From: Antedon mediterranea
Lineage: Eukaryota; Animalia; Echinodermata
Length of the DNA stretch: 64,000 bases
Direction of reading: 5' to 3'
NCBI RefSeq assembly: GCF_964355755.1
Contig: NC_092674.1
Coordinates: 21,514,001 to 21,578,000 of the forward strand
The notes beneath the pieces were generated by a model. The model was not told the DNA's origin and searched no databases. It saw only the letters and a list, made by a program, of their open reading frames with translations. The first letter of the stretch is position 1; each line of letters opens with the position of its first letter. Below, one piece after another: positions 707 to 59,539 of the stretch. The translations under genes and the position numbers were made by a program.

Positions 707-1170
707 ACAATACCATGAAAGCCTCAGTGGTCTAATGGTTAGGGCAACTGCATATCAAGCAGACGGTCCGAGTTCGAGTCTCGGTTGGGGCGACTTTTTC
801 TCATTCTCCCAGATTTCCTCATCTTTATCGTTTCAAAAATTAATTAAATAATTTTCAGTGTATCACCGGGCGGTTTGGAATTTATTTCTATGCCTGTTGT
901 GTTTATATATATATCGGTTGGGGGCGACTTTTTCTCATTCTCACAGATTTCCTCATCTTTATCGTTTCAAAAATTAATTAAATAATTTTCAGTGTATCAC
1001 CGGGCGGTTTGGAATTTATTTCTATGCCTGTTGTGTTTATATATATATCGGTTGGGGGCGACTTTTTCTCATTCTCACAGATTTCCTCATCTTTATCGTT
1101 TCAAATTAATTAATTAAATTTCAGTATATCACCGGGCGGTTTAGAATTAATGTTCTTTGCCTGATTTGTT
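707..1170 (+). mobile_element. Three 5'-truncated copies of the tRNA-containing (TA)n-associated element (707-902, 914-1036, 1048-1170)
   Basis: Match the 3' part of the full ~360-bp unit; each ends in TGCCT..GTT(TA)n. Confidence 0.85.
721..792 (+). tRNA. tRNA-like cloverleaf, Asp/Glu-type body, anticodon ATC (element-borne)
   Basis: GCCTCAG/TTGGGGC acceptor stem, A box TGGTCTAATGG, CTGC-ATATCAA-GCAG anticodon arm, CCGAG-TTCGAGT-CTCGG T arm, G discriminator, followed by TTTTT. Confidence 0.7.
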
Positions 1171-1191
1171 TATATATATATATATAATATA

Positions 1192-1372
1192 TAAATCCAA
1201 AGGCAAATTACTGAAAAAAATGACAATGCTGTGGGTATCAGTGGCTGGATCTCAATGGAGATACAAAAATAAAAAGCGAAAAGCTAAATCAAAACGATAA
1301 AGTAAACAGCCAGAAAAGTTAGCAGAGCTTTCGGGCAACACTAGCCCTTCATCAGTGCAAGTGAAGGAATTT
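1192..1372 (-). mobile_element. Solo pseudo-LTR of a Neptune-type PLE (continues at 2892-2910 after hAT insertion)
   Basis: Near-identical to the 3' end of the PLE at 56095-56290. Confidence 0.85.
1322..1358 (-). ncRNA. Minimal type I hammerhead ribozyme
   Basis: GCA-CTGATGA-A-GGGC-tagtgtt-GCCC-GAAA-GC-TC-TGC: core CUGAUGA/GAAA/UH, stem I GCA/TGC, palindromic minimal stem III typical of PLEs. Confidence 0.85.
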
Positions 1373-2891
1373 CAGACCTCCCAACTCTCCCGAAAATCGC
1401 GGGAGTCTCCCGATTTTTTTGGTTCTCTCCCGCGAAACCCAAATTTCCCCCGATTTTTTCATTTTTGGATAAAAATTTCCCGATTTTAAATAAGGAACAT
1501 ATACAATATGGCCAAGCCAAGTAATCACATTTTTAACGTTGGATTTTGTTGAATTGACAGGGCGTTGTGAAGTTGGTTGTTTAGTTAAAAGCAAAACAAA
1601 AGCCACACGCAAATACCATTGTTCGTAAAAAGATAAATAAAACAAAGCATACTCGAATAAAACAAAGAGTACTACTTCCCTTCTTTGTTGACTAATTAAA
1701 TACGCCTAGGTGGGTCGCCTAAACAACATGGCATGGTAGGTGTGGGCTGGCAGATAGAATTGCATTCAGCAAGATTTTTGTGAATAAACGACCAATCAAA
1801 TCAATCCCTTGAAAAACCACTTATTGACCACGTATAATTAAAAAAAAAGATGCATTTTTTAATTACTTATCAACTGATCGCCATTCAACTAGTTAAAATA
1901 ATATTACAATTTCAAATAAATAATTTACGATGTCAGCTCGGCCGCCGAAGAAAAAAATTAAGTATGCAGCAAAGTTCAAACCAGAGTTCACAGAAGATCG
2001 ATTATCCATGCATTATTTCGGTCAGAGGTGAACCTAGTTCAGCTAGATGCGCGCACGCTGTGAAATTTGACATTTAATATAAGTCATGGCGGTAGAAATG
2101 ACGTTCAGAAACATGTTTCGGTAAGTTTATTTTATTTTTCATATGTTATGTGCTTTTTTAATGTATAATTAAATAAACTACAAAAGGCCAGAAAATGTTA
2201 GACGCAAGGCTGCAACCGGAAGCTAGGCTAGTAGTGTTCACTTGACTTTGTAGGCCTAGCCTAGGCCTCAACAGTGCCTTTAGGTTACTAAACGGCGTCG
2301 TTCAGTCATTCCAGGCCTAGGGATTGGTGAACCTTAGATAGGCTAGGCGCTGTAGTTGGCCTGTCGATTCGGCTACTAGGCCTGGTGGTGGTCATACGTA
2401 CGTCTAGGTACAAAACTGTATGTTATCTAGGCCTATCTATGTTTTTAAAAATATAATATTTAGCCTAAAAAAAAAATATTTAGCCTAGATCTGTAATTAT
2501 TTATTGAAATTGATATTTTTTACAGACAAAGAAGCATGAAAAAGTTGCAAGAGCTGTGAACCAATGCCAGACTTTGTTGTTCAATATAAACAGAGATCCA
2601 ATAGCAGAAAAGGTTATAAACGCGGAGGTGCTTTCGTATATTGTAGAACACAATCTTCCATTCACCATTACGCAGCACGCAAACCACCTTTTTCCAACTA
2701 TGTTCCCGGACTCAAATGCACTAAATGTGTTATGTTAATAATGTACATAAGATGAAAATAAAATATTGTATTGTAGCATTTATTTTTGTATATCTTTGTT
2801 GTGTAACGCGCGTCGCATAATGCGTCGTAATAATATATTTTTTTACCGAAAAAATCCCCCTATTTTTTGTCAATCCAAGTTGGGAGGTCTG
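1373..2891 (+). mobile_element. Internally deleted hAT DNA transposon
   Basis: TIRs CAGACCTCCCAACT/AGTTGGGAGGTCTG; GAATTT duplicated on both sides; BED-finger-like 'C..C..DI.ISHGG.NDV.KH' exon, GT-AG intron, 'AEV..IVEHNLPF....H...LF..MFPDS'. Confidence 0.85.
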
Positions 2892-2910
2892 GAATTTGGA
2901 TAACGTCATA

Positions 2911-2957
<47 letters not shown>

Positions 2958-2962
<5 letters not shown>

Positions 2963-3681
2963 ACAGGCATAGAAATAAATTCCAAACCGGCCGGTGATAC
3001 ACTGAACATTATTTAATTAATTTTTGAAACGATAAAGATGAGGAAATCTGGGAGAATGAGAAAAAGTCGCCCCAACCGAGACTCGAACTCGGACCGTCTG
3101 CTTGATATGCAGTTGCCCTAACCATTAGACCACTGGGGCTTTCATGGTATTGTTCTTTAACTCGATCGGATAACGACCCTTTAACATTCTCGGCGTGGTA
3201 CGGTTGGAACACAACTAGTCCTCAGTTGTACGCACGTGCACCAGAGATCAAATTGATACGCCCTCATCTATAATTCAGTATATTTATTCACTAAGCGGGA
3301 TCTCGAGAGATACTTTTATATAAACACAACAGGCATAGAAATAAATTCCAAACCGCCCGGTGATACACTGAAAATTATTTAATTAATTTTTGAAACGATA
3401 AAGATGAGGAAATCTGGGAGAATGAGAAAAAGTCGCCCCAACCGAGACTCGAACTCGGACCGTCTGCTTGATATGCAGTTGCCCTAACCATTAGACCACT
3501 GGGGCTTTCATGGTATTGTTCTTTAACTCGATCGGATAACGAACCTTTAACATTCTCGGCGTGGTACGGTTGGAACACAACTAGTCCTCAGTTGTACGCA
3601 CGTGCACCAGAGATCAAATTGATACGCCCTCATCTATAATTCAGTATATTTATTCACTAAGCGGGATCTCGAGAGATACTT
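2958..3681 (-). mobile_element. Tandem dimer of the full-length tRNA-containing element (tRNA cores 3068-3139 and 3434-3505)
   Basis: Two ~360-bp near-identical units separated by a short TA tract and bounded by (TA)n. Confidence 0.9.
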
Positions 3682-3704
3682 ATATATATATATATATATA
3701 TATA

Positions 3705-4252
3705 TGGTTCATGCCTCGCATCTGAAATTGTCTACTCCGCCGACGTCATAACCAATAACGAAACTAAGACATATATTGGTATGACGGGTGGGCAGTTTAA
3801 AACTAGGTTTAACAATCACAAGAAATCTTAAAAAAAAAAACCGTACAGTAAAGAATCCGAGCCCTCAAAGTACGTATGGTCTTTGAAAAGTAATGACGTA
3901 GGCCTAATGTTTACAATTAAATGGAAAGTAATTAAATATTCCTCCACTAAGAACGCCGCTTATGGGCGTTGTAGTTTTTGTTTAGATTAAAAGCTATGTA
4001 TTCTAAATGCAAACAAAACAAATTTGTTAAACAAAAGGTCTGAACTGATTTCAAAATGTCGTCATAGCAAGAAAATTTACATACCACCTGACTAAAGCCT
4101 TATAACACCTCGAGATACGGTATTGTTCAGTCTATCTGCTGAAGATCGTTTAATGTGAAACACCGTGTAATAGACGCCCGTTTTCTATCTAATTCATAAA
4201 TATATATTCGCTTTTGATTTCAATTGAGCACTTTTGCTGCCTCAACGCATCT
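3705..4252 (+). mobile_element. 3' fragment of a second PLE family (GIY-YIG endonuclease end + 3' repeat)
   Basis: YIGMTGGQFKTRFNNHKKS...LLNKRSELISKCRH; degenerate hammerhead 4130-4175 (GTCTAT..CTGAAGA..GAAA CAC/GTG TA ATAGAC); flanked by (TA)n. Confidence 0.8.
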
Positions 4253-4279
4253 ATATAATATATATATATATATATATAT

Positions 4280-4444
4280 GCACTGATAAAGGGCTAGTGT
4301 TGCCCGAAAGCTCTGCTAACTTTTCTGGCTGTTTACTTTATCGATTTGATTTAGCTTTTCGCTTTTTATTTTTGTATCTCCATTGAGATCCAGCCACTGA
4401 TACCCACAGCATTGTCATTTTTTTCAGTAATTTGCCTTTGGATT
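4280..4444 (+). mobile_element. Solo PLE pseudo-LTR; hammerhead at 4280-4316 has a core mutation (CTGATAA)
   Basis: Reverse complement of 1192-1358; lies in (TA)n. Confidence 0.85.
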
Positions 4445-4467
4445 AATATATATATATATCAATATAT

Positions 4468-5868
4468 GTATCAATTTGATCTCTGGTGCACGTGCGTACA
4501 ACTAAGGACTAGTTGTGTTCCAACCGTACCACGCCGAGAATGTTAAAGGGTCGTTATCCGATCGAGTTAAAGAACAATACCATGAAAGCCTCAGTGGTCT
4601 AATGGTTAGGGCAACTGCATATCAAGCAGACGGTCCGAGTTCGAGTCTCGGTTGGGGCGACTTTTTCTCATTCTCCCAGATTTCCTCATCTTTATCGTTT
4701 CAAAAATTAATTAAATAATTTTCAGTGTATCACCGGGCGGTTTGGAATTTAGTTTTATGCCTGTTGTGTTTATATATATATAAAAGTATCTCTCGAGATC
4801 CCGCTTAGTGAATAAATATACTGAATTATAGATGAGGGCGTATCAATTTGATCTCTGGTGCACGTGCGTACAACTGAGGACTAGTTGTGTTCCAACCGTA
4901 CCACGCCGAGAATGTTAAAGGGTCGTTATCCGATCGAGTTAAAGAACAATACCATGAAAGCCCCAGTGGTCTAATGGTTAGGGCAACTGCATATCAAGCA
5001 GACGGTCCGAGTTCGAGTCTCGGTTGGGGCGACTTTTTCTCATTCTCCCAGATTTCCTCATCTTTATCGTTTCAAAAATTAATTAAATAATTTTCAGTGT
5101 ATCACCGGGCGGTTTGGAATTTATTTCTGGTAATACAATGCAAAAAGATAAAATTAAACTTAATCGAATAGGAAATAGAGCAATTAGACTAGTAGGAGAA
5201 AAAAAGTAAAAAGTATCATTGATGATGAAACACATCCTCTTCACAAACAATTTGCTCTCATGAATTCTGGCATAAGACTACGTGCACTTAATACCAAAAC
5301 AAAACGGTTTAGGTGCTCGTTTGTACCTAATGCTATATACTTGTATAACTCCAGAGTACAAAGGTAAAATGTAACCGATAATTTTTATCTAATTTTAACA
5401 ATTTTTAGCCTCTTAACTTTTTGTGTGTGTTTTTGTAAATTGTATTTTATATTTTTGTATTTTGCCAGTTTTCAAATCACATTTCTGTTTTTTAAATGGA
5501 CAATAAAGTATATATGACTATGACTATGACTATGACTATGCCTGTTGTGTTTATATATATATAAAAGTATCTCTCGAGATCCCGCTTAGTGAATAAATAT
5601 ACTGAGTTATAGATGAGGGCGTATCAATTTGATCTCTGGTGCACGTGCGTACAACTGAGGACTAGTTGTGTTCCAACCGTACCACGCCGAGAATGTTAAA
5701 GGGTCGTTATCCGATCGAGTTAAAGAACAATACCATGAAAGCCTCAGTGGTCTAATGGTTAGGGCAACTGCATATCAAGCAGACGGTCCGAGTTCGAGTC
5801 TCGGTTGGGGCGACTTTTTCTCATTCTCCCAGATTTCCTCATCTTTATCGTTTCAAAAATTAATTAAA
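4468..5868 (+). mobile_element. Tandem array of three tRNA-containing elements (tRNA cores 4588-4659, 4960-5031, 5741-5812)
   Basis: Repeated ~360-bp unit separated by (TA)n; second copy interrupted by a LINE 3' end; third copy's 3' end replaced by a hAT fragment. Confidence 0.9.
5129..5540 (+). mobile_element. 5'-truncated Rex/Babar-like LINE 3' end
   Basis: 'IIDDETHPLHKQF....SG.RLR...TKTKRFR.SFVP.AI.LYN' C-terminus, AATAAA, (GACTAT)n tail. Confidence 0.75.
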
Positions 5869-5972
5869 TGAAAAAGTTGCAAGAGCTGTGAACCAATGCC
5901 AGACTTTGTTGTTCAATATAACCAGAGATCCAATAGCAGAAAGGTTATAAACGCGGAGGTGCTTTCGTATAG

Positions 5973-6010
<38 letters not shown>

Positions 6011-6339
6011 ACAACAGGCATAGAAATAAATTCCAAACCGCCCGGTGATACACTGAAAATTATCGTTTCAAAAATTAATTAAATGAAAAAGTTGCAAGAG
6101 CTGTGAACCAATGCCAGACTTTGTTGTTCAATATAACCAGAGATCCAATAGCAGAAAGGTTATAAACGCGGAGGTGCTTTCGTATAGATTTATATATATA
6201 TATATATAAACACAACAGGCATAGAAATAAATTCCAAACCGCCCGGTGATACACTGAAAATTATTTTATTACCGCCCGGGCGGTTTAGATTTAATGTTCT
6301 TTGCCTCTTGTGTTTATATATATATATATATATATATAT

Positions 6340-6532
6340 AAATCCAAAGGCAAATAACTGAAAAAATGACAATGCTGTGGGTATCAGTGGCTGGATATAT
6401 CTCAATGGAGATACTAAAAAAAGCGAAAAGCTAAATCAAAACGATAAAGTAAAACAGCCAGAAAAGTTAGCAGAGCTTTCGGGCAACACTAGCCCTTCAT
6501 CAGTGCAAGTGAAGAAATTTGGATAACGTCAT
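6340..6532 (-). mobile_element. Solo PLE pseudo-LTR with intact hammerhead (6470-6506)
   Basis: Same sequence as 56095-56290. Confidence 0.85.
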
Positions 6533-6533
6533 A

Positions 6534-9500
6534 TGTGATGGGTTTGTCACATGGAAGCCCTCTAGAGTAAAAGAGGAGAGGTGAATAAAGATGGACGACA
6601 ACTACAACGTGTTTTGTTATGTTCTTATTGTTGGTTTCAGCCTAACAAGCGAGCCCGTAATAAATTGGGGGGTCATCCGAGAACAAAGTACGGAATTGTA
6701 GTTGTAGATCGAACTGATGGTAATTTTAGTTACTTATTCTAAGCTGGTTTTAGGCTTAGAGGCGTTTTATAACGAACGAGGTTTGGCGGTCGTCGAGCCA
6801 ATACACTGTGTTGTTGTTTTAGGCTTGAGTAGGCTTGCCTGTGATACTAGAAGTCGGTTTGGTTTTGATTTTAGGGGTCTAGTTATTGAGACCACGGCAC
6901 ACGGTATGTTTAATACTGTGTGGGCTTGGCAGGTATTTCATTACTGGTGCCTTAATTATCGTCATATTGGTTATTATTTTAACCTGTGTTTTTGTTTGTT
7001 TGTTTGTTTCAAATAGAATTGTCAGAAATTGATTTTGACGAGGAATTTTTAGATAACATGTCCATTGAGGTGGCAGCTCAGCTATCAGAGGAACGTTTGC
7101 GACTCCTAGGTACTAGGGTTGGAGCATCTATAAATGATTCTATGAATAAGTCTGACTTGATAAATGTGATTGGAAGTCATGTTGGTTTAATTACTCATGA
7201 ATCCGTAAAAACTGCGGGGAATGAGGTCGAGTTGGCTAGAATCGAGTTGGAACGTGAAAAATTAATTTTTGAAAGAAGAAAAATAGAGATTCTAGAGATG
7301 CAAACTCAAAGAGAAATGGAAAAAGAAAAACATGAATTTGAGTTAAGGAAATTAGAATTAGCTAACCAAATGGCTCACCACACGGGTTTCTACACCTAAT
7401 GATTCAGAGATTACTCAGAATATTAAATGGGTTCCCAAGTTTAATGAGGACGAGGTAGAGACATATTTTTTAGCTTTTGAGAAAATTGCTAATAGAATAA
7501 AGTGGCCTGCTAGACACTGGACTGTGTTGTTACAAACTGCTCTTGTGGGTAAAGCCCAAGAGGTATTTTCTGCATTGGCTGATGATCAATGTGAAAGCTA
7601 TGATGCGGTTAAAACTGCTGTTTTTTTCAGCTTATGAGTTAGTTCCAGAGGCGTATCGTCAGAAATTTAGGAACTTAGGTAAACCTTATGATCCAACGTT
7701 TACAGAATTTGCACGTAAGAAGCAGATTCTTTTTGATAGATGGTGTAGTTCGGAAGGAGTAAACGGTGAATTTGGAAAGCTTCGTGAGCTTATGTTAGTT
7801 GAGGAGTTTAAATCTTGTTCCCATACTGAAGTTCGTACACATCTAGAGGAGCAGAAAGTGGATAATTTAATGAAAGCGGCTTCTGTTGCCGATAATTATG
7901 TGCTCACGCACAAGGTAGTGAATACCAAATCGGTTTCCAAATCTGTTGATGATTTTAAGGTCGAAAGTCAGAAAACTACAGTTAATAGTAGTAGTAAATT
8001 TGTCAGAACTTGTTTTTACTGCAAGTAAAAGGGTCATATAAAGGCAGATTGCTGGCTGTTTCAAAGCAAAGCTAAAGGGAATAATAAGAAACCCCAATCA
8101 CTTCCAAACACGTTAGTAAATACAGTCCCGTTGAAAGTGACAGAGAGTCATGACGTTGATGAAAGTGAGAAGTTGATCCAATCTTCAGGTCTGGAAAAAG
8201 TGCGAAAGCTATTTAAGCCTTTCCTCTCTACTGGTTCTGTAGCATTGATCAACGATGTGAATCTGAGTAAAGTTCGTGTCTTAAGAGACACAGGGGCGTC
8301 ACAACCCCTGATAATAGAATCGGTATTGTCATTTTCAAGCGAGTCTTCTGCTGGAGCAACAAGTGTGCTCATTCAAGGTGTTGAAGGGGGTTATAAGGAA
8401 GTCCCACTTCATGTAATTCGGATTGAAACAGATATTGTTAGCGGAGATTTTGTTGTCGGTGTCGTTCCGAGTCTTCCAGTATGGGGTGTCACACTCCTTT
8501 TTGGGGAATGATTTGGCCGGAGACAGAGTGACAGTAGAACCGGTTGTGTGCAAGAGTCCTGTTGAAGACGAAAGCATGGTGTGTTTAGAGAAAGAATTAT
8601 CACATGTGTTTCCATCATGTGCGGTGACGCGATCTATTGCAAATAAAACCATAGATGAGGATGAGAGTTATTGACTTATGTGATAGTTTTTACGGAGACA
8701 TTACGGATCGCGTTTCCCAAGAGGCTGTCTGCTCAGGTCCCGAGTCACACACTGCCCAGGCTGAACAACAGCACCCAAAAGTGTGTGATTTCGGTCCGAC
8801 AGTTCTCAATCGGTCTAGGTTAGTGGAAGAGCAGAGTAATGATCCTGATTTGGTGTCATTTGGTCAGCAAGCTCTTTCTGTAGAGGAAATGTCTATTGTT
8901 CCTGTTTGTTATTATATAAAGGATGGCATACTTATGCGTAAGTGGAGGCCACCAGATATTCCAAGTAGTGATGTTTGGAATGAGATTCACCAGATAGTTA
9001 TTCCTAGTGGATACCGTCAGGATATTATTGGTATTGCGCATGATGATCGTCTTTCAGGTCATTTAGGTGTCAATAAAACGGTGGACAGAATTCACAGGCA
9101 TTTCTTTTGGCCAAGTCTTAGAAAAGATGTGTCTAACTATTTTAAATCCTGTCATGCGTGTCAGGTAGTGGGGAAGCCTAATCAAAAGGTTCCAGTTGCC
9201 CCACTTAAGCTTATTCCTACATTCGGTGAACCATTTTCAAGGGTGATTGTGTGGGTCCATTACCACGTACTACAATGGAAATGAGTATCTATTAACAATA
9301 ATGTGTGCATCAAGTAGGTTTCAAGAAGCGATTCCTCTTAGGCGTATTACAGCTAAGAATGTTGTTAAAGCATTGGTAAAATTCTTTACATGGGTAGGAT
9401 TGCCTAAAGCTGTTCAGTCCGATCAAGGATCAAACTTCATGTCAAAGACATTTAAACAAGTCTTAGAGCAGTTAGGTGTTGCCCATATAAGTTCAAGTGC

Positions 9501-11873
9501 TTACCATCCACAGTCTCAAGGGGCACTTGAGAGATTTCATCAAACACTTAAGAATATGCTTAAAACCTATTTTTTTCAATGTGAAAAGGGATGAGGGAGT
9601 TCCCTTATTGTTATTCGCTGTTCGTGAAACAGTGCAAGAGTCCTTAGGGTTTAGCCCATTTGAGTTGGTGTATGGTCATTCGGTCCGAATGGTCAAATAG
9701 CCTAGTAAAAGGCTGTTATGGAATGCAGAAGAGTCTGTATCGATACTAGATTATGTGTCTGAATTTCGTGATCGATTAAATCGTGCTCGTGAGATGGCTA
9801 GAAAGAATCTTGTGAAGGCTCAGGGTAAAATGAAGAGATTGTTTGATAGGAAATCAGAAAAGAGAAGCTTTAATTCAGGTGATGAAGTGTTAGTTATGTT
9901 GCCTCTTCCCAGTCAACCATTATCTGCAAGATTTGCTGGTCCTTACAAAGTATTAGAAAGAGTAGGAGAAGTTGACTATGTGTTAGATACTACAGATAGG
10001 CGTGAAAAGAAGCGACTGTGTCATATAAACATGTTGAAACCAAACACAGCGAGAAATAATAGTGATACCTGTACGTCAACACCAGTTACGTGTGTTGTTG
10101 AAGAGAATTCTGAAGAGTTTGGGGATCCTGATACATGTGTTAAGTTCAGTAATTCAGATGTCCTTGCAAACATTGAAGAAAAAGTTGGTCATTTATCTCG
10201 TGATCGTAAGGTTGAAATTGTTAGTTTGATATTTGGAAATCTGCAGTTGTTTTCCGATGTTCCAGGTCGAACGAACTTAGTGGAGCATGACGTTAAGACA
10301 GCTGATTGTTCACCAATAAAACAAAATCCATATAGAGCAAATCCGTCCAAGATGAAGATATTAGAAAATGAGATTGATTACATGATTAAGAATGATATAA
10401 TCGAGCCTAGTTGTAGTTCTTGGAGTTCTCCATGTATATTAGTTCCGAAGCTAGATAAATCGTATCGTTTTGTACTGATTATCGGAAGGTTAATGCCAAA
10501 TCTACTACAGATTCATATCCCATACCGAGGATAGATGACTGCATTGATCGTGTGGGTAGTGCTAAGTTTGTCAGTAAATTTGATCTTCTAAAGGGTTACT
10601 GGCGAATTCCTTTAACCGAGCGAGCGAAAGAAGTGTCAGCTTTTGTAACTCCCATGGGTCTTTATCAGTATAAAGTCATGCTTTTCGGTTTAAAGAATGC
10701 ACCAGCCACGTTCCAGAGATTGGTTAATGGTATAATTTCAGGGTTGGAGGGCTGTGAAGCTTATATAGACGATTTGGTTGTTTATAGTGATACAAGGGAT
10801 GTTCATGTGCAGAGAATTAAGGCATTGTTTTGGAGATTATCAGCTGCAAAGTTGACAGTAAATTTTGTGAAAAGCGAGTTTTCCTGTGCAGAAATTGTGT
10901 TCTTAGGTCATAAAGATTAAGGCAGTCTGTGATTTCCCAGTTCCAAAGAGTAAGCAGGAGTTAATGCGGTTCCTGGGAATGGCTGGGTTTTATCGACGTT
11001 TTTGCAGAAGTTTCTCAATGCTTGTAGCTCTATTAAAGAATCTGCTGAAAAAGAATGCGAACTTTGTGTGGTTGGAGGAATGCAATAATGCGTTCATTAA
11101 AGTTAAAGCGATGTTATCAAACGAACCGGTGTTGATGGCTCCACAATTTGATAAACAGTTCTCGTTGATGATTAATGCCAGTGATGTTGGTCCTGGTGCT
11201 GTCTTGGCGCAAATGGTGTTGACAAGCCTGTGTGTTTCTACTCGAGAAAATTCAACCAGCATGAGAAACGTTATTCTACTGTTGAGAAGGAGACATTAAC
11301 TTTGATGTCAGCGTTAAAGCACTTTGAAGTGTATCCATGGATCTACTCCGTTTCCAATTGTAGTTTGGACTGACCACAACCCATTAACGTTCTTGGCAAG
11401 AATGAAGGACAAGAATCAACGCCTGTTGAGATGGAGTTTAGCAGTTCAAGAAATGAATCTGGAAATTCATCATATCAGAGGAAAAGACAATGTTGTAGCT
11501 GACGCTTTGTCAAGAGTTTAGATAAAACATGCATGAAATGATTCTTAAAAGTTTTGTTGATTTTAAAAGTGTTAATTATAATATGTTAGTTGTGATAGAG
11601 TGATGCATTAATGGCATACACGGATTTAAAGTAAAGTCATTAGAACTTGTGAAATTTTAAAGAAGCAGTTGAAGTAAATTCATATCAACGACCTGTTAAA
11701 ATAACTACTGTATAAGAAGTAATTTAAGATGTTATAGTAAAAAGTTATAAGTTTAATCATATCAAACTTTCTTTAAGGGGGGGGGGGGGGTGATGGGTTT
11801 GTCAAATGGAAGTGAGCCCGTGTTTTGTTATGTTCTTATTGTTGGTTTCAGCCTAACGAGCGAGCCCGTAACA
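6534..11873 (+). mobile_element. Gmr1-type Gypsy LTR retrotransposon, near full length, frameshifted
   Basis: Short LTRs 6534-6662 and ~11790-11873; PBS TGGGGGG..TCC resembling tRNA-Pro complement; G-rich PPT; gag (SCAN-like, CCHC), protease LRDTGA, integrase (GHLG..KT, SDQGSNF, ERFH) before RT (YIDD) and RNase H (TDH.PL, ADALSR). Confidence 0.92.
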
Positions 11874-35206: not shown

Positions 35207-35681
35207 CTAAAAAAAACAACCAAAATATACTAAAATAATACGAAATGGAATTAGAGTGGTACCACAATCACTATATCCCAATACTTATAGGACGTCAAAG
35301 AGTGCTTATGTGAACATAATGTCGCGACCCAAATGTCAAATGCCGCGACCAAATTTCAAATGCCGCAACCCAAATGTCAAATGCTTATGTACAAATTGGT
35401 TACATTTAAAAAATCCCCAAACATGAACAATGATTGACAACGATCAAATACGACGAATGCAATTGTTTGTCAATTAAAAAATGCACATCACAATGGTAAA
35501 GAACTCATAAGCAAAATGTATTACAACCGTTAATTAAAGTACCGTGGTATTAATAAGAGGTATATCATTTCTGATTGTGTTGCCAGTGTCAGCCTGAATC
35601 ATTTATCTTATTTTATTGTTACAATTCTACAATAATAAGAACAATTAATTTTACATTGCTTGTATCCGATACCAAACTTAC

Positions 35682-36357
35682 CCTTTATAAAAGGAATTAG
35701 TTTCGTATGATATCTTGAACGACATCTTAGGCTTCGAGACCTCATTAATGAGCGTATATACCGGTACTTCTCCAACCCACATGTGAGCTCCGTCGCCAAT
35801 CTGCATTCCAACTCTTAACCAGTGCTCTGATCCATTGACAACCGCGTCTGTATCGTCTAGGACAACTTCAACTTCTAACGCTAAGATGTTATTGGAAGCA
35901 TATGGGTCGTTCACTTCAATAAATCCGTCAAAATGTGTCACCGACCAGTCTTTAAGAATGCCAAAGTTATCATCGTTAGTAATGTACTGCGTCTGAGGAG
36001 CGTAGTAGCAGAACTCTGTCGAATATGTACAGGATAAACTGTCACTGACATACGAAACGGACACTTTGTTGATACTCCACTGCTCGCTTGTCTTGTTAGT
36101 CGTGAAGTTGTATGGTAGTATGACTTCAATTTTAGGATCAGCGGTACCTTTTGGAAACTCAACAATAATGTTCATATGCACCCTTTGACCAACTTTAGCA
36201 TATACATTACCATCTGTAGACTGCTCAGTGATGTTCATGATGAAATGCGGTAGTTTACTGAAGACTGCGTCGGTAGCTCCCTCTGCCGTGATTAAACCAG
36301 CGTCATCGATTTCGGCATAAATAGTTACAAGTAAAATAGCTCCAGGTTTTATATTGG
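35682..36357 (-). CDS. Host gene exon 9 (beta-sandwich-like repeats)
   Basis: 676-nt open exon, phase 1-2. Confidence 0.85.
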
Positions 36358-36592
36358 CTACAATAAATTGATTTAAAACAAAATAGTTGGTTATTTTTTC
36401 TAAATATTAATGCAAATTATTGTAATAAGGGCAAGTTTAAATAAAACTGAGTGCAATATAGTTCGTTGCTAACGCAAATTTTTCTGAAAAAAGGCTATAT
36501 CAACTACATGATACGGTAATATCTGCACTTATAATTTAGCGACTCGAAATTTTATTTTGGTTTATTTAAGTAAAAAACGATTTCAATAATAC

Positions 36593-50333: not shown

Positions 50334-51395
50334 CTTCAGTAATAAGCCTGTGTCTGTTGGCTTTCTATAAACCCGTGTGTGCAATTTTTCCAAATCTTTG
50401 GTTATCAGCATTCCTAGGAAAGGGATTGAATTGTTCACGACAGTTTCCATTGTGAACGCTATCGCAGGATGGGTTGTGTTAAGTAAAGCTAAAAATGCAT
50501 TGGCTGCTTCTAGATTTGGCATGAATTGTGTCATTGCTACACTACAATAGTCACGTTGACAACAAGTATAAAAGGTCACTTATTATAACTATGTTAAATC
50601 GGGCTTACAAACTATCGTCGACCCACCAGCTTTTTAATGATGAATGTGAAATTCTAAGGAAGATTTTTAAGCGTCTGAAATATCCAGATGAACTAATAAC
50701 AACAACCAAACAGAACTTTAAACCAGCAGAGAGCAATAACAACACTGCAGAAGGTAAAACAGATTTATCCGAAATACCAGTGCGAATCATCCTGCCATTC
50801 AAAGACCAGAAATCTGCGAACTCCGTCAAGCGACAACTATGCCAACTAAGTCACAAGATAAACAAAAACATTGTCCCTGTATTCATAAGTAAAAAAGTTA
50901 AAGATAACATTAGGAAAGTCGAAAAGAAACCTACTATTATAAGTCAACAATGTGTTGTGTATAAATTTAAATGTGACTTGTGCGATGCAAGTTATGTGGG
51001 ATATACATGCCGACACCTCTACCAACGCATTGTTGAACATAGTAGGTGCTTAATAGGACATCATTTGAAGGATCATAATGTGATTGTTAATCCAAGTAAA
51101 ATTAATTCATGTTTTAGTATACTTAGGAAATGCAAAAACAAATTTGACTGTCTTATCTATGAAATGTTGTATATCAGACAATTAAAACCTAGTCTGAATA
51201 AACAAAGTGACTCTGTAAAAGCTAAGCTTTTCATTTGACAGGATGTTAGACAATAGGTCTTTTGTTATTTAAACTTTGACCCTTGGCTTGTGCTACTTAA
51301 TTAGTTGTTGTTTTATATTTTATTCATTGGACTTGATAATGACCCCATGATGGAGTCGAAACGTCGTTCTCTTTTAAGCGTTATTTTTATATTAT
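50334..51395 (+). mobile_element. 5'-truncated PLE with 5' inversion and hammerhead-like motif (51330-51368)
   Basis: ORF 50528-51238 with GIY-YIG (CVVY.F.C..C...YVGYT); upstream RT segment 50334-50527 on the opposite strand; GAC-TTGATAA-TGAC..GTC-GAAA-CG-TC-GTT. Confidence 0.88.
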
Positions 51396-53991: not shown

Positions 53992-55635
53992 TACCTTCGT
54001 GATATATTAGTCAGATCCAAATTTAAGAGTGAAATTAACTCTCATGACAGCCAAAATTTGGGCAGTCACCTTTGCGGCAAATCTTGCAAAACTTGTTCAT
54101 TGGTTGATTCTACTGAAAAATTTGAGAGTAACCAAACTGGCCGCATTTTTCGGATAAGACAATCAATTAATTGTCTAACCAAAAACGTCATGAATGAACA
54201 AGTTTTGCAAGATTTGCCGCAAAGGTGACTGCCCAAATTTTGGCTGTCATGAGAGTTAATTTCACTCTTAAATTTGGATCTGACTAATATATCACGAAGG
54301 TTGGGAGGTCTACGAAATGCAATAATGGGTGGTTCCGGAAAAACAGTTCCTGAGACGTTCTGTGGACTGTAGAATGGGCATATGTTTCTCAATAATAGCC
54401 CGTAATGGAGGCAACCTAGGTGGTAGGTTGTGACCAATGGCACTCTGGTCAAATTTTTTGGCTGACGTGGTTTGTACGTCAGTGTTTGACATTGAGGAAT
54501 ATCTTTTGCTTTCTTTATAGCAGTTTCGATGTATTCCTTCTTGTAATTTCTATTCCGGAGATGTCCGGTTAGTTCTTCGGTACGATTCTGAAAATCTAAA
54601 TCTGAAAAACAGATACGTCCGATACGTAATGCTTGACTGTACGGTATGTTTTTAGTACAGTGTCGGGGGTGACAATTGCTAGGGAGCAGGTACATATTTT
54701 TATCCGGCCGTGGGTTTACGGAATAGGTCAGTTTTGAGTGTACCATTTTCTATGGTCACTATAGTGTCCAAAAAACCAACGCTACTAGTGGATTTGGTAG
54801 CTGTAAATTTGATAGTTGGGTGGGCTGAATTAATATTGAGAAGAAAAGATTCCAAATTATCTTCACCATGAGTCCAGATCATGAAGATGTCGTCAATGTA
54901 TCTAAACCAAACAAGTGGTTTATTTGGTTGGAGGGACAGAAAATTGGCCTCAAATTGTCCCATAAATAAATTTGCAAAAGATGGCGCCATTTTTGTGCCC
55001 ATCGCTGTGCCATGAATTTGAAGGTAATGGTCATTTCCAAAAATAAAATTGTTGTTGGTTAAAATCAACATGACCAGTTCTCGTAAATGAGCTTTAGTAG
55101 GCGTTTTGCCTGGAATTTGTATGTAATTTAAAATACATGCGTCGGCTCCTTCTTCGTGAGGGATATTAGTATACAATGATGAAACATCTAATGTAGCCAG
55201 AACAGAATTATTAGGTAAATTTTGAATTTAGTTAATTTTGCGGATAAAGTCCGTGGAGTCCTGAATGTATGAAGGGAGATCAGTCACATGTGGTCTTAGT
55301 AAATCATCCACATATTCAGAAATTTTCTCTGTAGCAGTACCATTGCCCGAAATAATGGGTCTACCAGGATTGCCTGCTTTGTGGATTTTAGGTAGAAAAT
55401 AAAATCTGCCTGGAACTGGATTGACCTGTGCCAAATGAGGTCCAATCTTAGGATCGATGGAGTGTTTTTTTACCATCACAGAAACAGATTTGGCCACCTT
55501 ATCAGCAATTTCCGGGGTGGGATCCGTTGTAAGTTTACGATAATGAAGAGGATTGTTTAGCTGTCTTAAGGACTCCTCTTCATAAAATTTGATATCCATG
55601 GCAACAGTGGCAGAACCTTTATCAGCGGGTTTAAT
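53992..55635 (-). mobile_element. Neptune-type PLE copy 1 (RT), ending in an inverted duplication at 53992-54190; bounded by (TA)n
   Basis: ADKG, PKIHK..PGRPII, LDVSSLYTNIP, GTAMGT..APS.ANLFM, RYIDD, C..SC.TC linker. Confidence 0.9.
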
Positions 55636-55651
55636 GATATATATATATATA

Positions 55652-55968
55652 AAAATACTGAAAGATGAGGGCGTATCAATTTGATCTCTGATGCGCGTGC
55701 GTACAACTGAGGACTAGTGCTGTTCCGCCGTACCACGCCGAGAATGTTAAAGAGTCGTTATCCAATCGAGTTCGAACAATACCATGAAAGCCCCAGTGGT
55801 CTAATGGTTAGGACATCTGCATATCAAGCAGGCGGTCCGAGTTTGAGTCTCGGTTGGGGCGACTTTTTCTCATTCTCACATATTTCCTCATCTTTATCGT
55901 TTCAAATTAATTAATTCAATTTCAGTATATCACCGGGCGGTTTAGAATTAATGTTCTTTGCCTCTTGT

Positions 55969-55971
<3 letters not shown>
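55652..55971 (+). mobile_element. tRNA-containing element, subfamily B (tRNA core 55790-55861)
   Basis: Homologous to the units at 3-6 kb; lies in (TA)n. Confidence 0.88.
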
Positions 55972-56094: not shown

Positions 56095-57574
56095 ATATAA
56101 ATCCAAAGGCAAATTACTGAAAAAAATGACAATGCTGTGGGTATCAATGGCTGGATCTCAATGGAGATACAAAAATAAAAAGCGAAAAGCTAAATCAAAA
56201 CGATAAAGTAAACAGCCAGAAAAGTTAGCAGAGCTTTCGGGCAACACTAGCCCTTCATCAGTGCAAGTGAAGGAATTTGGATAACGTCATAGTATAAAGC
56301 TGGCAAGTGCTGCCTGGGTGGACAGGAATAAAAGAAATATAACAAAGGGAGCCAGGGTGAAGTCTGAATAAGAGTAGAAAACAAAGAAGGTAGCGTGGTA
56401 GAGATATAAACAATTTTGGAATGAGACTAAAAAACAGCTTAAATGGTTTGTTAATATTGAAACTTAAATTTTGGTAGTCAATGGAATAATTTTACCGATC
56501 TGGGAGTATGTTCCTAATGTTAAGTCCAAAAGGTTTTGTGGTTTTAAGTAGTAATTCCCAGTGGTTTTTTTTGTCTTTGCGAGTTTTGTCGTTCCATTGG
56601 ACATCGTGGTCTATTGCAATAACTCTGAAATTTGCAATCGAGTGACCAGCTGAATTAAAATGTTCGGCTACAGGTTGATCACGCTTAAATGTTTTGATAG
56701 CTGATCTATGTTGTGTCATTCTCATACGGAGAGTGTTTTTTGTTTCTCCGACGTACTGTTTGCCACAAATATTACAGTATATGAGATAAATGACGTTTTT
56801 GGTTAGACAATTAATTGATTGTCTTATCCGAAAAATGTGGCCAGTTTGGTTACTCTCAAATTTTTCAGTAGAATCAACCAATGAACAAGTTTTGCAAGAT
56901 TTGCCGCAAAGGTGACTGCCCAAATTTAGGCTGTCATGAGAGTTAATTTCACTCTTAAATTTGGATCTGACTAATATATCACGAAGGTTGGGAGGTCTAC
57001 GAAATGCAATAATGGGTGGTTCCGGAAAAACAGTCCTGAGACGTTCTGTGGACTGTAGAATGGGCATATGTTTCTCAATAATAGCCCGTAATGGAGGCAA
57101 CCTAGGGTGGTAGGTTGTGACCAATGGCACTCTGGTCGATTTTTTTGGCTGACGTGGTTTGTACGTCAGTGTTTGACATCGAGGAATATATTTTGCTTTC
57201 TTTATAGCAGTTTCGATGTATTCCTTCTTGTAATTTCTGTTCCGGAGATGTCCGGTTAGTTCTTCGGTACGATTCTGAAAATCTAAATCTGAAGAACAGA
57301 TACGTCCGATACGTAATGCTTGACTGTACGGTATGTTTTTAGTACAGTGTCGGGGGTGACAACTGCTAGGGAGCAGGTACATATTTTTATCCGTGGGTTT
57401 ACGGAATAGGTCAGTTTTGAGTGTACCATTTTCTATGGTCACTATAGTGTCCAAAAAATCAACGCTACTAGTGGATTTGGTAGCTGTAAATTTGATAGTT
57501 GGGTGAGCTGAATTAATATTGAGAAGAAAAAATTCCAAATTATCTTCACCATGGGTCCAGATCATGAAGATGTC

Positions 57575-57577
<3 letters not shown>
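56095..57577 (-). mobile_element. Neptune-type PLE copy 2, 5'-truncated, with intact GIY-YIG and 3' pseudo-LTR
   Basis: ORF to 56492 (VIYLIYC..C...YVGET...R..QH); pLTR 56095-56290. Confidence 0.92.
56228..56264 (-). ncRNA. Minimal type I hammerhead ribozyme in the PLE pLTR
   Basis: Same intact core as 1322-1358. Confidence 0.85.
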
Positions 57578-57616
<39 letters not shown>

Positions 57617-57620
<4 letters not shown>

Positions 57621-57971
57621 AAATCAGGCAAAGAACATTAATTCTAAACCGCCCGGTGATATACTGAAATTTAATTGATTAATTTGAAACGATAAAGATG
57701 AGGAAATCTGTGAGAATGAGAAAAAGTCGCCCCAACCGAGACTCGAACTCGGACCGCCTGCTTGATATGCAGATGTCCTAACCATTAGACCACTGGGGCT
57801 TTCATGGTATTGTTCGAACTCGATTGGATAGCGACTCTTTAACATTCTCGGCGTGATACGGTGGAACAGCACTAGTCCTCAGTTGTACGCACGCGCACCA
57901 GAGATCAAATTGATACGCCCTCATCTTACAGTATTTTTATTCACGAGGAGGGATCTCCGAAGAGATACTTT
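57617..57971 (-). mobile_element. Full-length tRNA-containing element, subfamily B (tRNA core 57728-57799)
   Basis: Fully paired D stem GTCT/GGAC, TCTGC/GCAGG anticodon stem, intact T arm; flanked by (TA)n. Confidence 0.9.
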
Positions 57972-59539
57972 TATATATATATATAAACAAATCAGGCAAA
58001 GAACATTAAATATATATAAACTTTTTTTTATTGGTTTTCATTTGTTTAACTGTATCATCTGCCTTTTCCAGATTCGATTTGGTGAATCAAAATTCCAAAT
58101 GCCAATCAGTCTTTCTGACCTAGCTCACCAATTAGGCCACTCATCCTGAGTTCTAGAAACTACGTTGTCGGCTTTACATTTGCAACCTCCCTAAAGCTCT
58201 GTAGTATAGTTGTTCTATGGGCTGCCGTCATGTCCTGTAGCTTTTTTCATATTCCTCATGTAAACTAATATTTACGTGTCATTATCAGAACCATTATCAA
58301 TCGGGTTGACGTCATATTTCTTGAGTCTTCCGCCATCTATTCCTCCGGGAAGTGTCTCCAAAATGTTGTCCCTGGTTAGTGAGTTAAGAGGTCTAAAAAT
58401 AGTACACAGTAAATGATGACAAGGATTTTATACAAAGATGTTACATTCATATAAGTGGCAAATTTTTAATAACCTTCTCATCATAACATTTGCTTAAAAC
58501 TAGTTCTGCTACTGCATTTCATTAAACTCTAAACTAAAAATAGTAAATAAAATAAGGTCGCTTTCAATAAATAATGGACCTGTAATAAACCTCAATATAA
58601 ATAATACATGGTGGTTTGTACCTGTGTCTATATGGGCGCGTTTATACAACACGCTATTACACGCATATTCAACAGGCCTACAAGAAGTGTGTTGTAACAT
58701 CGAAGAGATTCCGTGTAATGAGATTTTAATTTTCAAAAAAGACTACTTGGTTGAATACAAACATTTTGTGGATTCCCGGTTGCTGTTGGCGTGTTGGAAG
58801 TGTCCTCATGGTATTGTTTTGACCTTTTGTTAAATAAAAGTATGTGTTATGAAAATGTTGACTATATATCTAGTAGATAATTGTGCTTTTTTTTGCATAT
58901 TTTAACCGATTTGGGAACTTAACCTTAACGCTAATCAAATGTTAGCATAATTTGGCAAAATGTAGCATAGTGTTATCCTAATTCTAAGTATTTTTTTTTT
59001 CTAATTTCAAAGGCAGATTTTAAAAATCAATAACTGAATAAGCTAAATTTTAAACGAAATCATCCTTTTTATTAAAATTTTTAATAAACTCATATTATTC
59101 ATAATGCATGCGAGTATATATACAACTTAGGATTATGAGCTATGGTATAACACGGTATTACGATTTAATGTATAACTGCAAGTTTTTTGTGGGGTTGGCC
59201 TTGGCCCGCGCTAAAAATTAAAGACGTGTTCAAATTTGGTCACTATTTTTTTATACCTATACAAAAACGCAGTGATATATACGCCAACAAGAAGTTAACA
59301 CCAAAGAGATTCCGTGTAACGAGATTTTAATTGCGAAAATACCTATTCCTAAAATGTTGTGGATTCCTGGTTGCTGCTGTCGTGTTGGAAATATCGCCAT
59401 GGTTTTGTTTTGACCTCTCGTTAAATAAAGTATGTGCTGTGAACATTTTGACCAAATCTAGTAAATAGTAAATTGTGCTTTTTTGTTAACATCGCAAAAA
59501 TTAAATACCTTAATAATTATATTGTATAAAGACAACCTT

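Follow-up and report, generated by a model that had tools for sequence, protein, structure and literature searches.

What is a complete transfer RNA (tRNA) doing in the middle of a short repeat, and which enzyme moves that repeat? The question arises in a stretch of 64,000 nucleotides from the echinoderm Antedon mediterranea (RefSeq assembly GCF_964355755.1, contig NC_092674.1, positions 21,514,001 to 21,578,000 of the forward strand), the whole of which we call the window and number from its first letter. The repeat is a protein-free unit of 355-360 bp, in which a 5′ module carrying an antisense arm, the tRNA, a run of five thymines (T5), and a 3′ module follow one another, with the 3′ end anchored at (TA)n microsatellites. 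On balance, we regard it as fairly probable that the unit is a non-autonomous passenger of (TA)n-targeting, Neptune-type Penelope-like retrotransposons and that its internal tRNA is a likely RNA polymerase III (Pol III) promoter, predicted to be masked by the arm.

The repeat unit, its truncation and its spread

Both ARAGORN and Rfam detected eight tRNAs in the window, all labelled Asp(ATC) and scoring 50-58 bits over the full length of the model, and each of them sits within a copy of one repeat. This agrees with an earlier reading made from the letters of the window (the sequence-only reading), which had described a repeat of about 360 bp with a whole tRNA in its middle. The layout that it proposed also holds: a 5′ module of 173-177 nt, the 72-nt cloverleaf, one further base, T5, and a 3′ module of 110-111 nt. 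Because the tRNA lies 173-177 nt inside the unit, the element is not a conventional short interspersed element (SINE), as had been claimed. There are 14 pieces of the unit in the window (four full-length, one that lacks the 3′ end, and nine truncated on the 5′ side), and eight of the 14 contain a complete tRNA fold. They fall into two subfamilies, A and B, which are about 90% alike, with 14 differences across 170 aligned bases of the 5′ module, three across the 72 of the tRNA, and 10 across 109 of the 3′ module.

The truncation is polar. Loss of the 5′ side outnumbers loss of the 3′ side by 9:1 (one-sided p 0.011), or by 7:1 once two duplicated pairs are merged (one-sided p 0.035). The nine truncated pieces thus bear out the statement that such copies lose the 5′ side and keep the 3′ end. 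A (TA)n array adjoins the 3′ end in 13 of the 14 pieces. Arrays of at least five TA occupy 0.7% of the window; when the 21 such arrays were assigned by eye from a list of their flanks, 16 touched the unit, two touched only Penelope-like pieces, and three touched neither. Eight of the 16 also adjoin a Penelope-like piece, one of them not in contact but at a distance of up to 45 bp. The earlier assertion that all copies lie in (TA)n therefore stands for the 3′ ends, but not for the 5′ sides of the tips at 6008, 6209, and 6276, which have no TA. With its polar truncation and with its 3′ ends at (TA)n, the unit behaves as the retro-type, (TA)n-associated, 5′-truncating element that had been envisaged.

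Near the left edge of the window, three 5′-truncated copies are found on the forward strand at 706-903 (subfamily A, starting 15 nt before its tRNA at 721-792), 914-1037 (an A/B chimera), and 1048-1171 (subfamily B). Two full A units lie on the reverse strand, the one at 2958-3316 (tRNA 3068-3139) head-to-tail behind that at 3323-3681 (tRNA 3434-3505, T5 3427-3431). A run of three head-to-tail A copies on the forward strand begins with a 5′-truncated copy (4468-4770, tRNA 4588-4659), continues with a full unit (4783-5551, tRNA 4960-5031) and ends with a copy that has an intact 5′ end and has lost its 3′ end (5564-5869, tRNA 5741-5812). The middle unit is split by the 3′ fragment of a long interspersed element (LINE) at 5129-5535, which has a (TATGAC)n tail and is younger than the copy into which it was inserted; the piece at 5536-5551 is the remainder of that copy and no tip in its own right. 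Isolated 3′ tips follow at 6008-6063 and 6209-6271 (both subfamily A, reverse strand) and at 6276-6314 (subfamily B, forward strand), and the last two form the single back-to-back inverted pair. About 50 kb away, a 5′-truncated B copy at 55651-55971 (forward strand, tRNA 55790-55861) stands head-to-head with a 5′-truncated Penelope-like open reading frame (ORF) across (TA)7, and a full B unit at 57618-57971 (reverse strand, tRNA 57728-57799, T5 57721-57725) has a 3′ tip upstream of it at 57986-58010 on the same strand. The tandem period is 366 bp, with two to three units per run.

Recombination at the DNA level also shapes these arrays, as is shown once by the 914 copy, which joins a B-type start to an A-type end at the same breakpoint as the 1048 copy. 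A 219-bp duplication at 5845-6264 is likewise a rearrangement of DNA. A 105-bp piece (2536-2640) of the DNA element at 1373-2891 occurs again at 5868-5971 and 6083-6186, where it is attached to the tRNA unit.

The unit or a part of it is present in 11 public runs, none of which is recorded as RNA although X5 might at a guess be, and contigs of five of the 11 were compared with it. Two of the runs, X1 and X5, come from one organism (A, where X1 is possibly the source of the window itself), and X7 comes from another (B). The B unit matched 10,369 contigs in X1, 1,241 in X5, 7,549 in X7, and nine in X10, and the A unit matched 4,383 in X1, 550 in X5, 3,097 in X7, and one in X9, although contig numbers are no copy numbers and organism C is not counted as a host on the single contig of X9. 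Since thousands of contigs in two organisms carry the unit, it is not confined to one segmental duplication, which had been named as a way in which the sequence-only reading might fail. Summed contig depth falls about threefold towards the 5′ end in X1 and X7, with no step at the start of the tRNA, and in X5 it is the 3′ module that has the higher depth; such depth cannot rank the parts of a unit, and we did not use it as evidence. Scans at the sequence and protein levels gave no relative in viral contigs, and none was found in genome contigs. The only metagenome match looks like a bacterial tRNA locus that matches by chance.

Head-to-tail junctions, the probable promoter and the antisense arm

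The exact 5′ end shared by the full copies had been taken as the start of the copied RNA. Four of the five intact 5′ ends in the window are preceded by the 3′ end of a copy in the same direction, across a TA spacer of about 5-14 bases, and the fifth (3681) is preceded by a (TA)12 array. The tip at 57986 and the neighbouring full B unit's own 3′ end agree at 24 of 24 positions. The same joint occurs in contigs of four public runs. Among the matches listed, 10 bases of TA separate 3681 from 3320 in a contig of X5, at least five contigs of X1 continue beyond the 5′ end as TA and a 3′ tip, and one contig each in X5 and X7 holds the joint from 58003 to 57641 and runs into the upstream unit; record 13 of X10 contains both sides of the joint. 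A spacer four bases shorter is present in at least 27 contigs of X1, seven of X5, and 15 of X7. The recurrence of these joints, in which a 3′ end, TA, and a 5′ end follow in one direction, indicates that the 5′ end is no sign of a transcription start. The shared 5′ end is usually the junction of a tandem or end-joined template, and it shows that copying reached or passed the boundary of the unit.

The tRNA itself is well preserved. All eight cover positions 1-71 of the 71 positions in the Rfam model; in the alignments displayed, no non-standard pair is flagged in two B copies and two marks are present in two A copies. Both subfamilies have one exact A box (tRNA position 8) and one exact B box (position 52). 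The canonical anticodon loop of tRNA-Asp has a pyrimidine at position 32 and the anticodon GUC. Because all eight tRNAs have A32 and the anticodon ATC, and so depart from the canonical Asp loop, a role in translation is unlikely. The copies of the unit would enter genome annotations as many false tRNA-Asp(ATC) genes. The sequence-only reading had regarded the tRNA as cargo or as a processing or structural module. Because the exact A and B boxes have been kept, it is more likely that the tRNA acts as a Pol III promoter for the next copy in a tandem. The 706 copy, although a single case, begins 15 nt before its tRNA, where a Pol III transcript would be predicted to begin.

Within the 5′ module, an arm of 38-40 nt stops 12 nt short of the tRNA; its sequence complements the T-loop, the 3′ strand of the acceptor stem, T5, and about 10 nt further. 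In subfamily A, it lies at 3518-3557 (reverse strand), facing all of these parts, and at 4908-4947 (forward strand) in the full unit 4783-5551; in subfamily B, it lies at 55740-55777 (forward strand) in the copy 55651-55971 and at 57812-57849 (reverse strand), facing the 3′ third of the tRNA and T5. The predicted duplexes between arm and target have energies of -35.9, -29.7, -44.5, and -40.4 kcal/mol in the four copies. These values were reached by none of 1000 block shuffles per copy and by 0-2 of 1000 controls from the window, and a test corrected for the search gave 0, 2, 0, and 0 of 100. Taken alone, the 5′ module folds no better than its shuffles (z +0.56 and +0.92); the whole B unit with its tip reached z -4.8, and shuffling only the 5′ module cost 14-32 kcal/mol, with none of 40 shuffles equally stable in each of the four copies. 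The duplex on the opposite strand is 11-17 kcal/mol weaker, and all six distinct transitions in arm and target yield G-U rather than A-C (p 0.016, from few and related sequences). The strand bias and the G-U pairs therefore point to selection on the sense RNA. Shorter stretches further out in the 5′ module find their pairing partners, in nested order, in the 3′ module, as if the former had been derived from an inverted copy. The earlier statement that the element has no terminal inverted repeats is correct for its termini, but it overlooked this long internal complementarity.

In the folding model, the probability of the acceptor stem is about 0 both in the full RNA and in a permuted RNA that starts with the tRNA, and forcing the stem in the full unit costs 11-21 kcal/mol. 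The arm is thus predicted to fold the cloverleaf away. Such masking could answer the question of how a perfect tRNA promoter survives without the RNA being cut as a precursor tRNA.

These observations can be combined into a mechanism. Pol III would initiate at the tRNA of one copy and sometimes continue beyond T5, through the 3′ module and the UA spacer, into the next copy, and the resulting RNA would be permuted or longer than one unit. The arm is predicted to pair with the 3′ third of the tRNA and the five uridines, giving a long rod that RNase P and RNase Z would not see as a precursor tRNA. A Penelope-like protein with reverse transcriptase (RT) and GIY-YIG activities may then nick (TA)n and begin reverse transcription at an internal point, where the 3′ module ends. 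The RT may run past the boundary of the unit on a tandem or end-joined template, in the form of one long read-through RNA, of a circle, or of ends bridged by a jump. The expected outcome would be 5′-truncated copies, partial tandems (a tip, TA, and a full unit), and inverted tips.

A bolder version of this mechanism, which we put forward as unlikely but worth stating, would place the unit in a widespread but undescribed class of Pol III retroelements driven by Penelope-like enzymes, with the tRNA in place of the hammerhead ribozyme. The cloverleaf and the arm would form a two-state switch: the RNase P of the host would cut some tandem tRNAs to give unit-length permuted RNAs, the rod would bring their ends together for joining, and the masked state would protect the template of the RT.

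A literature search found no description of a tRNA-bearing Penelope-type unit, although Repbase, Dfam, and the supplements of the papers, which may list such families, were outside its scope. The usual partners of SINE-like elements are LINEs, and those of tRNA-bearing TRIMs (terminal-repeat retrotransposons in miniature) are long terminal repeat (LTR) retrotransposons; a Pol III unit borne by Penelope-like elements would, if true, supply the missing third pairing. It would also offer a natural substrate of 360 nt with which to test what these telomerase-related enzymes recognise and how they target (TA)n, and to learn why they can do without hammerheads.

Penelope-like neighbours and the rival explanations

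The same microsatellites hold Penelope-like elements, which the sequence-only reading had overlooked. The candidate source of the enzyme is a 5′-truncated Penelope-like ORF at 56492-57577 (reverse strand), which comprises the end of the RT, a CX3CxxC linker, and a GIY-YIG domain. The best named relatives of the neighbouring Penelope-like ORF come from Holothuria and Apostichopus and are 65-68% identical, which suits an echinoderm host. A second, frameshifted ORF with an RT domain at 54066-55636 (reverse strand) starts at (TA)n, and both ORFs are cut on the 5′ side and joined to (TA)n. The pseudo-LTR (pLTR) of the first element (56100-56290, reverse strand) has a minimal hammerhead core and ends in (TA)n, as do further hammerhead pLTR copies at 1194-2909 (split), 4280-4445, and 6341-6532.

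The published work on Penelope-like elements fits this setting. Structures typical of them are the loss of the 5′ side, a full copy preceded by a truncated one, and a truncated neighbour in inverted orientation; non-autonomous head-to-tail families are known; and the CX2-5CxxC linker, a motif of the Neptune and Nematis groups, has been tied tentatively to (TA)n targeting (PMC8557442). A Penelope-like enzyme nicks AT-rich DNA on both strands in vitro and starts reverse transcription internally, and the same study proposes a multi-copy RNA template and finds hammerhead cleavage dispensable (PMC11167929). In tandems of SINE-like elements from schistosomes, the upstream element transcribes the next one (PMC6765202). 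The partner enzyme of the unit is deduced from structure and target rather than from homology. We also considered that the unit might derive from the neighbouring hammerhead pLTR with a tRNA swapped in, and rejected this origin: global and local alignments were non-significant, and chains of short exact words shared by the unit and the pLTR were borderline (37, 4, and 1 of 500 shuffles attained the same chain score), with one shared word falling inside the antisense arm.

Several points weigh against a masked Pol III passenger of Penelope-like elements. T5 directly after the tRNA is expected to stop most Pol III transcripts. When the arm is scored by identity instead of energy, it is significant in one B copy only (B57614, 0 of 2000), borderline in the other (B55649, 30 of 2000 shuffles and 99 of 2000 window controls), and non-significant in the A copies (395-624 of 2000), and two-sided changes within the 5′ module were found in none of 30 pairs among five sequences. 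A free RNA consisting of the tRNA and the 3′ module is also predicted to form a poor cloverleaf in three of four copies (acceptor probability 0.01-0.15, compared with 0.96 in the other). Because the model underpredicts the free cloverleaf too, the masking is to be read as a thermodynamic prediction. In global alignments, the 3′ module showed no significant similarity to the neighbouring pLTR or to two other Penelope-like 3′ ends of the window (93, 503, and 358 of 1000 shuffles scored as high). Finally, a shared microsatellite can mean a common sink and not a common enzyme.

Alternatively, the unit could be a composite tRNA SINE moved by an ordinary LINE, in which a (TA)n-tailed SINE gained an inverted self-copy upstream and inserts into its own tails by microhomology. 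We consider this improbable, although A and B boxes with 5′ truncation suit any target-primed element, patches of the 5′ module do read, in nested order, like the end of the tRNA and the 3′ module copied in inverted form, the 706 copy has (once) a start like that of a Pol III transcript, and many LINE fragments are scattered in the window. A BLAST search with word size 7 and E up to 1, which covered the LINEs of the window only, gave no LINE piece that has the 3′ module in common with the unit; an RNA that begins at the tRNA would need a tandem donor if the 173-177 nt in front of it were to be copied; and the joint of tip, TA, and full unit seen in four runs is not predicted by LINE-type insertion. 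Quite improbable, in our view, is the proposal that the unit, or its tRNA with the 3′ module, is the pLTR of an unseen autonomous Penelope-like family, present as solo and tandem copies. It would give the same truncated and tandem structures, and the hammerhead pLTR of the neighbouring family does have solo copies with a common start (2909, 6532, and 56290). Yet none of the five intact 5′ ends runs into an ORF as one element, and four run into the unit's own 3′ end; the loose ends listed at the 5′ end in the public contigs read TA and a tip, with 517 and 997 further loose ends beyond those listed.

The remaining explanations work at the DNA level. A rolling-circle or fold-back element with a captured tRNA gene, whose fixed end would be the start and whose hairpin at the other end would be the stop signal, might account for one invariant end, for head-to-tail joints, for the small hairpin at the variable end, and for the long internal inverted complementarity. 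Nevertheless, we judge it very improbable: there are neither terminal inverted repeats nor the TC...CTRR ends of Helitrons in either direction, the strand bias of the complementarity through G-U pairs points to RNA, and the back-to-back tips and the Penelope-like neighbours of the same polarity also speak against it. Rearrangement at the DNA level, as seen in the 914 chimera and in the duplication of 219 bp (5845-6264), would suit a tRNA-pseudogene satellite that spreads solely by unequal recombination and gene conversion between TA arrays, but the polar truncation, the two orientations, the sites 50 kb apart, the short arrays of two to three units, and the thousands of contigs in two organisms make such a satellite the most improbable of these explanations.

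Some further observations concern the Penelope-like sequences of the window. The small hairpin at the 5′ end of the unit, whose loop is UUCG in subfamily B, agrees in the letters of its stem with a hairpin of the neighbouring pLTR (56126-56174), perhaps by chance. The hammerhead pLTR of about 190 bp is present in three copies with the same start base on the reverse strand (2909, 6532, and 56290); two of them have no ORF and may be solo pLTRs or represent a retrozyme-like unit. A 5′-truncated GIY-YIG-like fragment of another Penelope-like family (3705-4257, forward strand), with a minimal hammerhead core at 4139, lies between two (TA)n arrays; judged by eye, it resembles the Hydra clade. The end of a third Penelope-like ORF with a GIY-YIG domain lies at 50525-51380 (forward strand), with a hammerhead-like stretch near 51335, and 53993-54191 is an inverted duplicate of part of a Penelope-like ORF beside (TA)7. 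Inside a Penelope-like pLTR lies a DNA element of 1.5 kb (1373-2891), which has a terminal inverted repeat of 14 bp and a duplication of 6-7 bp. Elsewhere in the window, a broken Gypsy-like LTR retrotransposon occupies 6600-11870, with a 53-bp direct repeat at 6608 and 11819, in which integrase-like frames seem by eye to precede the RT (a Gmr1-like order), and an open frame of 242 codons at 35678-36406 (reverse strand) is likely a host exon, with no match in Pfam.

Comparison with known systems

SINEs derived from tRNA (SINE2) have A and B boxes, 5′ truncation, a 3′ end of simple repeats, and high copy numbers. The unit differs from them in that its tRNA is central and a complete cloverleaf with T5 directly behind it, and in that no LINE-type tail was found in the window.

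Self-cleaving ribozymes define two of the other systems. At the gathering and E-value thresholds, Rfam returned only the tRNA and chance matches, and a hammerhead descriptor applied in all strand orders found none in the full A or B units. Loose hammerhead matches in the 55651 copy were rejected, as they need a 2-base insertion and a stem III of 2-3 bp, were scored as high by 1 of 300 shuffles, and are gone in the other copies. A single descriptor match to the hepatitis delta virus (HDV) ribozyme, which spans a joined dimer of subfamily A only, was likewise discarded.

The SINE-like hammerhead tandems of schistosomes (the S. mansoni elements and Sj-alpha; PMC6765202) resemble the unit in being short tandem units whose Pol III promoter lies elsewhere than at the 5′ end of the RNA that is mobilised, so that each upstream copy would drive the one after it. 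In contrast to them, the unit has no hammerhead, possesses a whole cloverleaf with a predicted antisense mask, and has its 3′ end fixed in (TA)n. The non-LTR retrozymes of animals (bioRxiv 10.64898/2026.07.22.740005; PMC7761336) are likewise protein-free tandems of a few hundred bases with structured RNA, for which Penelope-like enzymes have been proposed. The unit lacks the type I hammerhead that defines them, and its homology to the pLTR is non-significant.

Helenus TRIMs (PMC10886601) also make use of a tRNA: a tRNA-like sequence lies in the repeat of a non-autonomous retroelement and is probably a Pol III promoter for the part downstream. They are recognised there by two LTRs with a PBS (primer binding site) and a PPT (polypurine tract) between them and by a target-site duplication of 4-5 bp. 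The unit, as compared with that description, has no LTR pair enclosing a PBS and a PPT and no TG...CA ends; its copies are joined by TA only, without an internal segment, and it is likely of the Penelope type and not dependent on Gypsy or Copia elements (PMC10886601).

The non-autonomous Penelope-like elements, such as Chlamydomonas MRC1 and the Neptune and Naiad insertions (PMC8557442), share with the unit 5′ truncation, partial tandems, an inverted truncated neighbour (seen once in the unit), a preference for (TA)n, and head-to-tail multicopy structures. A tail of 30-40 bp is an optional further feature of such elements. The tRNA-like gene, the Pol III boxes, and the antisense arm set the unit apart from the elements described there; the paper mentions tRNA once, for selenocysteine (PMC8557442). 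In its working the unit is like a retrozyme or a schistosome-type tandem SINE, but it has neither the hammerhead of retrozymes and schistosome tandems nor the head of a SINE nor the LTR-PBS-PPT arrangement of Helenus, and it does have the structural marks of non-autonomous Penelope-like elements.

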